A stretch of 64,000 nucleotides of DNA, taken from Candidatus Hadarchaeum sp. Lineage in GTDB: Archaea; Hadarchaeota; Hadarchaeia; Hadarchaeales; Hadarchaeaceae. Made by a program: the position numbers and the translations under genes. Positions 29,846 to 32,786 of the stretch are shown in pieces. A model generated the notes under the pieces. It was not told the origin of the DNA and ran no database searches. It saw only the letters and a program-made list of their open reading frames with translations. The stretch covers positions 74,731 through 138,730 of the forward strand of contig NZ_JAVZIN010000002.1 of assembly GCF_038871235.1 (NCBI RefSeq), read 5' to 3'. How positions within the stretch are numbered: the first letter of the stretch is position 1; every line of letters starts with the position of its first letter.

Positions 29846-30664
29846 CTAATCACCTATCATAATTTTTCTAAATATCTGGGAAAATCCGAGGTAGGTAATG
29901 AAATACCACCAACCCACCCCGAAAACGACCAGCGGGCCAATAAAGGGAAGGTCTATTCTGATAAACGGCAACCAAGCCACCACCCATCCTTTAAAGTAAC
30001 CGCTCAGCGTGATCCACAGGATAAAAAGCGGGATCATATAGATGATGGACGGCTTCAAGGTTTGCGACGTGTTCTGCATCATCAGCTTGTTTATCTCGGG
30101 CTGCTGCAATTGAAGTTTGTGCACCAGTTTCATGTCCCTCTTCTTCATCGCCTCACGGTATTCCTTCTGGAAAGCAGCTATTTTCTCTTTGTTCTGCTTC
30201 ACCAACTCCCAGTTCACCATTTTCTTAGTTATTATATTCACAATAAATGATGCCACAACACTGATGCCCAGAATTATAAAGAGAGAATATTCAAAAATTG
30301 GCGACAGATGAACCCCCACCAGCGAAGCCGCTCTGGAGATATCTGATCGCAAAGAGAGGATATCGGTTTCAGTTGGTGTCTGAGAAACTGCTGCGAACTT
30401 GACCTTAATTTGCTCGTCAAGGGAGGAATCTGCTCCCGCCACGCTGGAGCTGAAACTAAACAGATAGCCCTCATAGGCCTGCGCAAGATGGCTTTTGGCC
30501 GAGTCGCTGTCGCCCCGGCGCAAGGATGCCGCTGAGGTGTCTAAGTTATTAATGATGCTGAAAAGATCGTCGCTATTTCCTTGCCCTTGGGCCCGAGCTA
30601 ATCCTGAAAGAATTATAGCAGATGTCAGCACCAGAGCCAGCAGAATCGGCATCTTTCTTGGCAT
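29846..30664 (-). CDS. DUF106/EMC3-TMCO1 (Oxa1-superfamily) membrane insertase with N-terminal signal peptide and extra domain
   Basis: C-terminal TM, coiled coil, KPSIIYMIP and WWYF..F...RK typical of DUF106; position between secY and eL34; ~120 extra N-terminal residues. Confidence 0.88.
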   Translation of the reverse strand: MPRKMPILLALVLTSAIILSGLARAQGQGNSDDLFSIINNLDTSAASLRRGDSDSAKSHLAQAYEGYLFSFSSSVAGADSSLDEQIKVKFAAVSQTPTETDILSLRSDISRAASLVGVHLSPIFEYSLFIILGISVVASFIVNIITKKMVNWELVKQNKEKIAAFQKEYREAMKKRDMKLVHKLQLQQPEINKLMMQNTSQTLKPSIIYMIPLFILWITLSGYFKGWVVAWLPFIRIDLPFIGPLVVFGVGWWYFITYLGFSQIFRKIMIGD

Positions 30665-30870
30665 AAATTCACCTTAGCGCTGAGACTATATTATCCACTG
30701 CTTTTTAAACCCTTTATCAATATTCTGAAAACAAACCGAAGCCCTGAAACTGGTGGACAGAAAATCCCAACATCGCAATCCGGCTGCTGGCGTTTCGATA
30801 GCCCAACTAGCTTGCTCAAACTATGCATAGTTGCCTCACTGACCAGTCTTTCTGCAACTCGATCGTGTTC

Positions 30871-32340
30871 TCACTCGCCAAAGAGTTTCCTAACGGCTGG
30901 GAACATTTCCGCCACTTGTTCTTTGGCTATCTCCTGATACAAGCTGTACATGATACCAACAGTCAACAGGATGCCTGTCCCGCTACCTAGTGCGCCCAAA
31001 AAGTCCGCCCCGGCCGAGAGGAACCCTACAAAGGCACCACCGAGTAGAGCCGCGGTTATGATGTAACGACTCAGTACCCACTCCATGACTCTCACATCAC
31101 GCCTAAATCCTGGAATCAACATGCCGGACTCATCCAGTTGTCTCGCCACATCTCCTGGGCCCATCCCAGTCATGTGCACCCAGAGGTAAGCGAAGCCCAT
31201 GCTGGCGAGAACTAATATCGCCATATAGATGACGGCCCGAATTGGATCGGCGGCTACTTGGGCCAGTCCATTTGGGGCATCTGTGAAGTAGGAAAGCCAC
31301 GGCGCATGAAGAAGGGCGGCAAATATCTTCAGATTGGCAAAAACCGTCATGGCCAAGATGACCGGAATATTTGAAGTGTAGAGGAACCTTATCGGGTAGC
31401 GTCCCCTGACCCCGCCAAACCGACCGTATGCCAGCGGAATCTCTATTCTCATGCTTTCGGCATAAACTACTATGAAAAATATAAGAATTGTCGCTATCAG
31501 TCCCATCATATTAGGCAAATGGGGTCTGAAGAACTCACTGATGACATCACCGCTGCTGAGTACCGTGCCTATCAAATTAGGGATGACGCCGGTGGCTGGG
31601 TTTAGGGCCTCCCAGACCACCGTCATGGCAACACCGCCAGCTATAAACAAACTGACCCCGCTACCGAAGCCGTATTTTGAGACCACTTCATCCAGATAGA
31701 TCACCACGATGGCCCCTAGGGTTAGTTGCAGAACAAGCAGAATTCCCGCTGGGCTCAACAACCCCACACTCTTGCCATAGTTACCTGCCAGTACCAGCAT
31801 CGCGCCCTCAAAAACAGCCATAATGATTGCTAAAAATTTCTGAATCCCGGTGAAGAGGGCACGGTCTTCACTCTCCGACAAATTTAAACCTATTATCTTG
31901 CTGCCCACCAAGAGCTGCATTACTATTCCCGCCGTAACAATTGGGCCAATACCTAACTCCATCAAACTGCCGGCATGACTTGCCAGAACGTATCTAAGCT
32001 GACCGAAGAAATTTTGGGCCCCGGCATCCCAGACGCCGTTATGATTCAAATCAGTATAAGGTTCTAAAGCGGTTTCACCAGGGTCCATCACCCCGTTACC
32101 ATTGGCATCAATAAAGTCAAAGACTCCGTTACCGTTAGTGTCCACGAACGGCTCCCGCTGGGCTATGCCGTAGAGCGGAATCTGAGACATCAAGAAGAAA
32201 ACAATCAGGGCCACTCCAGTCCAGATGAACCTCTCCTTAAAAGGAACCCTTCTTTTGGGAACTGCAACTTCGGGCAAACGACGAACAATTGAATCTAATG
32301 CATAAAGCTTCGAGCGCGGCTTCTCCATTTCCCCATCCAT
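30871..32340 (-). CDS. secY: Preprotein translocase SecY with repeat insertion
   Basis: ELGIGPIVTAGIVMQLL, GFGSGVSLFI, YTSNIPVIL, IPGFRRD, SGTGILLTV. Confidence 0.97.
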   Translation of the reverse strand: MDGEMEKPRSKLYALDSIVRRLPEVAVPKRRVPFKERFIWTGVALIVFFLMSQIPLYGIAQREPFVDTNGNGVFDFIDANGNGVMDPGETALEPYTDLNHNGVWDAGAQNFFGQLRYVLASHAGSLMELGIGPIVTAGIVMQLLVGSKIIGLNLSESEDRALFTGIQKFLAIIMAVFEGAMLVLAGNYGKSVGLLSPAGILLVLQLTLGAIVVIYLDEVVSKYGFGSGVSLFIAGGVAMTVVWEALNPATGVIPNLIGTVLSSGDVISEFFRPHLPNMMGLIATILIFFIVVYAESMRIEIPLAYGRFGGVRGRYPIRFLYTSNIPVILAMTVFANLKIFAALLHAPWLSYFTDAPNGLAQVAADPIRAVIYMAILVLASMGFAYLWVHMTGMGPGDVARQLDESGMLIPGFRRDVRVMEWVLSRYIITAALLGGAFVGFLSAGADFLGALGSGTGILLTVGIMYSLYQEIAKEQVAEMFPAVRKLFGE

Positions 32341-32345
32341 CGCTT

Positions 32346-32786
32346 TCACCCAGCGATAGCCTTGCCACCAGCTTCCTCAAGCTTTCGTTTAGCCGATTCA
32401 ACAAATGATTTTGCCACAACCTCAAGCGGACGAGTCACGCGGCCACCGCCTAGGACCTTGTCGACTCCGAGCTTGTTCAAATCCACCAGAAATCTATCCC
32501 CCTCCTTCTTGGCCACTCCCATCCCAACTAACCTATCCAAATTTTCGTCGATTTCACCGACGTTGATGGCGGTTACCCCCCGACGCACAGCCTCCGGTCG
32601 TGTGAAGCCGTGTTTGCCGAAATAATCAGGCATGTATCTAATGATGTACGACCACTTGTGTTTGTGTCCACCGCTCATTCCCGTGCCGCCACGCTCGCCA
32701 CTACCCCTTCCTCTCTTAGAGCATCCACGGCCATAGGTGCGCCTACCTCGCTGTTTTCTAACCTTTCTACCCCTGCGAACGGTCAT
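32346..32786 (-). CDS. rpl15: 50S ribosomal protein uL15
   Basis: RTYGRG, FGKHGF, KVLGGG, AKRKLEEAGG. Confidence 0.96.
   Translation of the reverse strand: MTVRRGRKVRKQRGRRTYGRGCSKRGRGSGERGGTGMSGGHKHKWSYIIRYMPDYFGKHGFTRPEAVRRGVTAINVGEIDENLDRLVGMGVAKKEGDRFLVDLNKLGVDKVLGGGRVTRPLEVVAKSFVESAKRKLEEAGGKAIAG

Follow-up and report, generated by a model that had tools for sequence, protein, structure and literature searches.

Introduction

The closest described system to the protein considered here is the archaeal SecY/Sec61-alpha channel subunit of known structure (PDB codes: 1rhz/1rh5 and 3mp7). The protein is a SecY encoded in a 64,000-nucleotide stretch of DNA from Candidatus Hadarchaeum sp. (contig NZ_JAVZIN010000002.1, positions 74,731 to 138,730 of the forward strand), hereafter called the window. 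It resembles the archaeal channel subunits in full-length homology, the ten-helix fold, the plug and the location of the gene in the ribosomal operon. Whereas the hinge between the first transmembrane helix (TM1) and the plug is a fixed short loop in those proteins, it carries 45–46 extra residues in the SecY of the window. An original prediction, made from the letters of the window, described this insert as three D-x-N-x-N-G-V-x-D units of Ca2+-binding type placed just ahead of the plug, which might gate or stabilise the channel or bind surface-layer or chaperone partners. The insert is translated and under purifying selection.

Short acidic loops of this kind have been described in other settings. 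The available part of a structural survey of the Dx[DN]xDG class allows for Asn among the ligands, and in it a thermophilic archaeal subtilisin carries a Ca2+-stabilised loop insertion belonging to the class (Rigden et al. 2011, PMC3123361). Residues D462–E474 of FrpC form an EF-hand-like Ca2+ site in a domain that folds on Ca2+ binding, according to the available text of PMC7078468. Full-text literature searches listed no paper whose title or abstract mentions Ca2+ loops built into SecY or Sec61 itself.

Identity of SecY and position of the insert

The secY gene lies at 30871..32349 on the minus strand of the window, starts with GTG and encodes 492 residues. The product scores 235.6 bits (1.1e-69) against Pfam PF00344, for which the cut-off is 32.2, and exceeds the cut-offs of the NCBIfam equivalogs NF006341 (383.1 bits, cut-off 300) and TIGR00967 (308.6 bits, cut-off 253.6). 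It matches the solved SecY proteins of P. furiosus (3mp7; E = 1.8e-115) and M. jannaschii (1rhz; 2e-98) by sequence. An AlphaFold2 (AF2) model of the whole protein, with a mean predicted local distance difference test (pLDDT) score of 83.6, has the SecY fold: it superposes on 1rh5_A with a Z score of 41.2 and a root-mean-square deviation of 2.8 over 392 residues, and its best Foldseek matches are Sec61/SecY structures with target-normalised TM-scores of 0.78–0.84. Only one SecY match was found in the genome (G000; 1.2 Mb, 94.75% complete), and the genes upstream of secY, uL18-uS5-uL30-uL15, form the canonical ribosomal-protein operon. As a single gene in a ribosomal-protein operon, this secY is the housekeeping copy.

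The open reading frame (ORF) translation runs ...IPLYGIAQR-EPFVDTNGNGVFDFIDANGNGVMDPGETALEPYTDLNHNGVWDAG-AQNFFGQLRYVLAS... across the insert. TM1 (residues 37–56; 32182..32241, minus strand) coincides with an AF2 helix over the same residues, aligns with TM1 of both 3mp7 and 1rhz, and ends at the extracytoplasmic face, where IPLYGI follows. The segment FFGQLRYVLAS (residues 114–124; 31978..32010, minus strand), which contains a short AF2 helix at residues 118–121, aligns with IFEFWQTITAS of M. jannaschii SecY, a stretch that we take to be the plug of 1rhz. In the alignment with 3mp7, residues 15–65 pair with residues 7–54 of the chain and residues 112–491 with residues 56–467, leaving residues 66–111 (EPFVD...WDAGA; 32017..32154, minus strand) as 46 residues against the single residue of 3mp7. 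The plug is also recognised by the Pfam model PF10559 (Plug_translocon; 30.1 bits against a cut-off of 22.1). Since the insert splits this model, the match is partial: just positions 1–16 of 35 align, at SecY residues 49–64. The alignment and the split model together bear out the predicted location after TM1 and ahead of the plug, and the predicted boundaries, 32020..32154, correspond exactly to residues 66–110. The expectation that the loop is short elsewhere also holds. The spacing from IPLYG to AS.RG is 62 residues here. Of 55 other archaeal SecYs taken from metagenome loci, 53 have a spacing of 17 residues and one has 18, the remaining row being a mis-anchored regular-expression match.

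All three predicted units are present. Unit 1, D70-T-N-G-N-G-V-F-D78, is encoded at 32116..32142 (minus strand; DNA repeat copy 32116-32136), and its position 12 is D81, which serves at the same time as position 1 of unit 2. Unit 2, D81-A-N-G-N-G-V-M-D89 (32083..32109, minus strand), has E92 at position 12 and is the extra unit of the three-unit form of the module. Unit 3, D100-L-N-H-N-G-V-W-D108, is encoded at 32026..32052 (minus strand). An alignment of SecY modules shows that the three-unit form has 11 + 4 more residues than the two-unit form. The unit copies in the insert are 67–76% identical at the DNA level, pointing to old copies. The strict motif D.N.NG[VILM].D occurs three times in 7181 six-frame ORFs of at least 60 residues from the 1.2-Mb genome, each time in the SecY insert, compared with a count of 0.027 expected by composition for the 921,176 residues of those ORFs.

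In the AF2 model of the whole SecY, the insert has pLDDT values of 75–85 (residues 61–110) and forms a few isolated bridges, and residues 57–117 contain no helix, so that the flanking helices of a canonical EF-hand are missing from the model. An AF2 model of the insert alone (67 residues, alignment of seven sequences) has a mean pLDDT of 47 and is unusable, and a search of the ESM Atlas for look-alikes of residues 62–114 gave no usable match.

Occurrence and constraint

A 67-residue query spanning the insert matches SecY in 12 of 66 species-level Hadarchaeota genomes. The insert is found in all eight genomes of genus g1, in the three-unit form, and in the two-unit form in the single genome of g4 and in three of the six genomes of g9, whose other three have SecY matches that skip it. 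Among 121 related SecY clusters that were aligned, the insert has the three-unit length in 13 and the two-unit length in 8, 21 in all; the other 100 lack it, one of them being a fragment without that region. The 67-residue region is 97% identical to the closest named record, a Candidatus Hadarchaeum metagenome-assembled genome, and all 12 listed sequencing runs are labelled hot springs metagenome. A pattern scan of the genome collection (EPFVDTNG and M[ST]Q[IV]P[LI]YGI, patterns that favour the three-unit form) found full-length occurrences in seven Hadarchaeum/Hadarchaeota records only. A word-indexed search with SecY residues 50–125 returned nine proteins, of which eight are SecYs of Hadarchaeota type and the ninth is a repeat protein. 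No SecY of another origin was among them, but the search requires shared 5-mers and does not imply absence.

For pairs of g1 genomes with an estimable synonymous rate, the ratio of non-synonymous to synonymous rates (dN/dS, NG86 method) over the 48 insert codons is 0.010–0.082, compared with 0.013–0.043 for the rest of the gene. Between G001 and G002, the insert differs by 26 synonymous and no non-synonymous changes. A contig from a second hot-spring study spans 31958–32160 with 27 substitutions, no gaps and no joints; contigs alone were used for this check of cover, and the uncovered parts in X2 and X3 say nothing. Because dN/dS is low, the second study's contig covers the region and 12 genomes carry the insert, the insert is not a misassembly, a non-coding element or neutral junk. 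The misassembly allowed for in the original prediction is contradicted by the same three observations. M. jannaschii SecY does tolerate deletions in the plug region, as far as the titles of 2yxq and 2yxr tell, and the loop has been lost repeatedly. These points would suit a neutral slippage product, a fault of the assembly or a segment that is excised from the transcript or the protein. Such an origin is nevertheless scarcely credible in the face of the purifying selection, the agreement of independent genomes and a second study's contigs without any change in length, and the invariance of the ligand positions.

A large family of 15-residue repeats

A profile built from the two-unit core of the SecY modules, together with the DUF106 module described below, was searched against 1.84 billion representative proteins and found 3820 of them at E <= 1e-3, 791 of which reach E <= 1e-10. 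Many carriers have large tandem arrays, with up to 44 matched stretches per protein. In the best 150 proteins (P0122–P0271; 1898 units), the modal period is 15 residues and the consensus is D-x-N-G-N-G-x-[WYF]-D-x-G-E-P-F-x, with D1 in 100%, N3 in 85%, N5 in 81%, G6 in 83%, D9 in 89% and E12 in 62% of the units. The SecY module shares both the period and the consensus and belongs to this repeat. Judged from the consensus, each 15-residue unit contains all 12 residues of an EF-hand-type loop, and P-F-x connects it to the following unit.

No Pfam or NCBIfam model for the repeat was found in scans of the insert and of repeat-rich carriers. Eleven of 15 scanned carriers have no Pfam family whatever, and three repeat-rich carriers gave nothing relevant in Pfam even at E <= 10. 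For 10 carrier clusters that were looked up, the source names are solely "hypothetical protein", apart from one beta-propeller label. The identifiable carriers include cytochrome oxidase subunit COX2, TadE-like pilus proteins and leucine-rich repeat (LRR) proteins. In the COX2 protein P0276, an array of about 200 residues (approximately 205–400) joins the cupredoxin domain (120–203) to a C-terminal cytochrome c domain (409–508). A cultured bacterium, Sphingomonas leidyi DSM 4733, encodes a TadE-like pilus-assembly protein with the two-unit module EPFVDTNGNGVRDPGECYTDVNGNGQWD (L152 1918..3276, plus strand). By a crude test, 70 of 135 carriers starting with Met have an N-terminal hydrophobic segment, compared with 116 of 650 long ORFs of the Hadarchaeum genome, and many carriers are apparently secreted. 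Other Hadarchaeota ORFs gave five weak matches to the module (E = 0.048–0.48). The module is thus a generic repeat of many extracytoplasmic proteins rather than a device specific to the translocon. The search exposes a large repeat family of 3820 representative proteins that has no Pfam or NCBIfam model and includes cultured carriers such as the Sphingomonas TadE-like protein.

Predicted Ca2+ binding

In 53 units from 21 SecY clusters, D1 is present in all 53, N3 in 52, N5 in 50, G6 in 49 and D9 in 50, while positions 2, 4, 7, 8 and 10 are variable. The residues that are invariant or nearly so fall on EF-hand positions 1, 3, 5, 6 and 9, in agreement with the original assignment of the motif to the Ca2+-binding type. 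The complete 12-residue EF-hand loop, with ligands at positions 1, 3, 5, 9 and 12 and Gly at position 6, is found in unit 1 (D70..D81) and unit 2 (D81..E92). All three units contain D-x-N-x-N-G and fit the Dx[DN]xDG motif, since Asn was allowed in the structural search of its authors, according to the available text (PMC3123361). Ca2+ binding by the insert is thus a prediction made at the level of the motif.

Profile searches add little to the motif. The insert alone has sub-threshold Pfam matches (GEVED, DUF7151, EF-hand_1/5/6 and SdrD_B), the EF-hand ones falling on unit 2, and none in NCBIfam; the insert and the repeat-rich proteins scanned together likewise gave sub-threshold matches only, including CglD. 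No thrombospondin type 3 or other named Ca2+ repeat was listed at E <= 10 for the insert and three repeat-rich proteins, in a search in which the HMMER filters drop many weak matches.

Patchy distribution among close relatives

A SecY tree was built from 70 rows after removal of the insert columns. These comprised 32 genome-derived SecYs and the clusters P0003–P0032, P0036–39, P0043, P0050, P0052 and P0053; further clusters were left out to limit the size, and the SecY loci G012, G017, G041 and G042 were not in the alignments as the ORF pattern did not find the gene. Insert presence requires nine changes on this tree, at least six of which cannot be avoided given the well-supported branches. 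A tree constrained to keep the 30 rows with the insert monophyletic is worse by 438 log-likelihood units (p = 2e-59 in the approximately unbiased (AU) test), and monophyly is rejected. In its behaviour the module resembles an exchangeable cassette: close relatives have acquired it, enlarged it from two to three units, let it degrade and lost it.

The insert of P0019 is identical to that of P0024 at 34 of 38 positions and the backbones at 329 of 426, which is suggestive, at most, of lateral exchange of the cassette between the two lineages. The SecY columns that co-vary most strongly with insert presence, in a comparison that ignores kinship, are the conservative swaps S/T128 and K/R476. In genus g9, uL15 groups the genomes (L010, L041, L043 and L044) with 76–88% identity among them and 63–67% to g11, whereas in SecY the backbones of g9 genomes without the insert are as close to g11 (74–76% identity) as to g9 genomes that have it (69–76%). 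The discordance between uL15 and SecY is mild and could reflect recombination or faster change of SecY after acquisition of the insert.

A plausible role of the insert in SecY

The module consists of three copies, or two in related genera, of the extracytoplasmic 15-residue repeat, and these would form EF-hand-type loops without flanking helices in the outward-facing hinge from TM1 to the plug helix of the cell's only SecY. Each loop is predicted to hold one external Ca2+ ion through D1, N3, N5, a backbone oxygen at position 7 and D9, with units 1 and 2 gaining a further ligand from the acid at position 12. Packing of the position-8 aromatics with the P-F linkers may then make the 45 residues fold into a small rigid knob on the rim of the outer funnel, and the pLDDT values of 75–85 over residues 61–110 are in keeping with a compact insert. 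The ends of the knob would reconverge where the ancestral loop of 8–10 residues stood, leaving the plug mobile. The most likely role is structural: Ca2+ would stiffen the hinge or outer vestibule, a feature useful to the cell but not essential. We regard it as somewhat probable that the insert is such a rigid knob, loaded with Ca2+ and placed where the plug hinge meets the outer channel rim, and that it is kept as an accessory that stiffens or stabilises the channel in the hot-spring setting.

Several observations weigh against this hypothesis. Unit 3 has no acid at position 12, which is A111. The Pfam models EF-hand_1/5/6 score 12–16 bits on the insert, all below cut-offs of 25–26, and the module profile found only five rows at E <= 10 among PDB sequences, none of them significant; the best, DLNGNGIIDNGAE of the FrpC self-processing module, has E = 0.12. 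The affinity for Ca2+ may be low, each loop having only two or three acidic ligands and Asn at positions 3 and 5. The stabilising role is a guess, as is any link between the presence of the insert and temperature or Ca2+. In the clade P0009–P0013, the region corresponding to residues ~62–114 has the three-unit length with units 1 and 3 intact, and the middle unit has lost its ligand residues (e.g., DKNGDRKVQ). P0015, P0016 and P0020 lack the insert although they are nested among three-unit SecYs, and the short junction that they have instead, ITR/AGDF, resembles the outcome of a deletion. P0019, with two units, and P0030, with the ancestral-type loop IPKGQQVS, are identical at 416 of 433 positions outside the loop (96%). 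Since a simple deletion would not recreate the IPKGQQVS loop, replacement by recombination is the likely cause of this difference.

The insert is also dispensable over evolution, because it is patchy on the SecY tree with at least six gains or losses and its monophyly is rejected, yet it is conserved wherever it is kept. The original prediction would have been undermined by an insert that is both widespread and dispensable. Dispensability holds, as SecYs of 96% identity differ in the insert, and a wide occurrence among SecYs does not. The insert is built from a common repeat and is dispensable, and its role in SecY is a prediction from its sequence and position.

The same pattern of change raises the possibility that the presence or absence of the insert is a surface polymorphism under biotic pressure, which would mask or unmask a site for viruses or secreted toxins. 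The state changes on well-supported branches, the rejection of monophyly and the nearly identical alleles that differ in the cassette are what such pressure would leave. The carriers are under purifying and not diversifying selection, however, and we know of no virus or toxin that uses archaeal SecY, so that this explanation appears very improbable.

A further possibility is that the module works as a Ca2+-dependent gate, in which Ca2+ occupancy sets the position or mobility of the plug and makes translocation or ion leak responsive to external Ca2+, the boldest of the roles in the original prediction. The module lies 3–5 residues upstream of the plug helix and is strongly conserved, and the available part of PMC7276530 discusses a Ca2+-linked control of eukaryotic Sec61 through the trans-acting EF-hand partner Sec62 and, as proposed, TRAP-alpha. 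Close relatives manage without the module, however, the same repeat is generic in many secreted proteins, and external Ca2+ in a hot spring is no obvious signal. Gating of this kind is quite improbable, and a dedicated Ca2+ switch is less likely than the structural role of a stiffened hinge.

The neighbouring insertase

Directly downstream of secY, the window encodes an EMC3/TMCO1-like (DUF106) membrane protein of 272 residues without the module (29846..30664, minus strand; PF01956, 4.5e-17). The EMC3/DUF106 family is an archaeal YidC-like insertase, according to the available text of PMC6098224. In the DUF106/EMC3 homologues of Hadarchaeota, including that of the window (29846..30664), the PF01956 core (residues 129–269) is preceded by an N-terminal extension of ~125 residues, and the start of the protein resembles a signal peptide.

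In G052, a genome of genus g8 that is 56% complete, SecY lacks the insert, and a module of two units, GEPFTDSNGNGRYDEGEPFDDLNGNGVWD, is found instead in the extracytoplasmic N-terminal domain of the DUF106 orthologue (L042 976..1884, minus strand). The module is a clean 30-residue insertion in this one of 17 aligned orthologues, the 16 others having no module, and the window protein, 38% identical to that of G052, has a gap at this place. The module of the G052 insertase is 77% identical over 30 residues to the SecY module of G044, and P0027, from the same SecY clade as the G052 SecY, has the module in SecY. At the DNA level, the G052 insertase module and the sampled SecY modules are 56–60% identical overall and 37–40% at third positions, which does not support a recent transfer of DNA from one gene to the other. 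The gene order differs slightly between the two genomes: the DUF106 gene is the next one after secY in the window (30665..30870 lying between the two), and a 192-residue nucleotide-kinase-like gene intervenes in G052 (L042 1889..2467). The latter has an AAA_17 match and probably encodes adenylate kinase.

The strongest argument for connecting the module with membrane-protein biogenesis is the G052 insertase, a case from one genome. In this reading, the module would act as a docking handle at the exit of the biogenesis machines, where it would recruit a common extracytoplasmic partner, such as the surface layer, a protease or chaperone, signal peptidase, oligosaccharyltransferase or the insertase itself. 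A near-identical module on the insertase next to an insert-less SecY, and its presence in SecY in P0027 of the same clade, would be expected of such a handle, and bacterial and eukaryotic Sec channels are described in the available literature as cooperating with Oxa1-family insertases. We consider a docking handle rather unlikely all the same, as the insertase case is a single one-member cluster on one contig and as COX2 and TadE-like proteins, which are unrelated, have the module too, apparently as a spacer. Unlikely, too, is the bolder idea that the module is a cis-acting Ca2+-loaded element of the plug hinge that either holds the plug shut, as a metal-dependent seal for a membrane that is hot and leaky, or is a docking handle for one outer-face partner that can sit on either SecY or the Oxa1-type insertase. 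If that were true, no translocon before this one would have had a metal-binding domain for regulation or docking as part of itself.

Comparison with known systems

Few membrane proteins are as conserved as SecY, and the insert is a natural, selected module of 30–45 residues at a hinge whose length hardly varies in the archaeal SecYs surveyed. The TM1–plug hinge evidently tolerates what would be a folded domain, and structural and biophysical studies could use the insert as a natural handle on the plug. Close alleles with and without the insert provide a ready comparison for the part of the hinge in sealing and in stability at high temperature.

The closest match in a solved protein is the FrpC self-processing module (PDB code: 6sjw), in which the core D-L-N-G-N-G-[IV]-x-D-x-G-x-E is nearly identical to that of the SecY units. 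Unlike the SecY insert, the FrpC module is a self-cleaving domain of 177 residues, and the match is motif-long (E = 0.12); no homology is claimed. With the Dx[DN]xDG class, the SecY units share D1, [DN]3, G6 and the backbone oxygen after the motif, but position 5 is Asn rather than Asp in 50 of 53 units, and the Ca2+ site is a predicted one. The tandem, helix-free context of the SecY insert with its 15-residue period is not among the contexts given in the available part of PMC3123361. The subtilisin of an archaeal thermophile is, in that text, a precedent for a Ca2+-stabilised irregular insertion.

Elsewhere, the 15-residue repeat forms arrays of up to 44 stretches that look like linkers or stalks, whereas in SecY two or three units are placed inside a loop of a polytopic channel. 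At the translocon itself, the EF-hand of Sec62 and the EF-hand proposed for TRAP-alpha are, like the SecY insert, elements of Ca2+-binding type (PMC7276530, available part). Sec62 and TRAP-alpha are separate proteins that act in trans, with Sec62 acting on the cytosolic side, whereas the SecY insert is part of the channel subunit and lies on its outer face.

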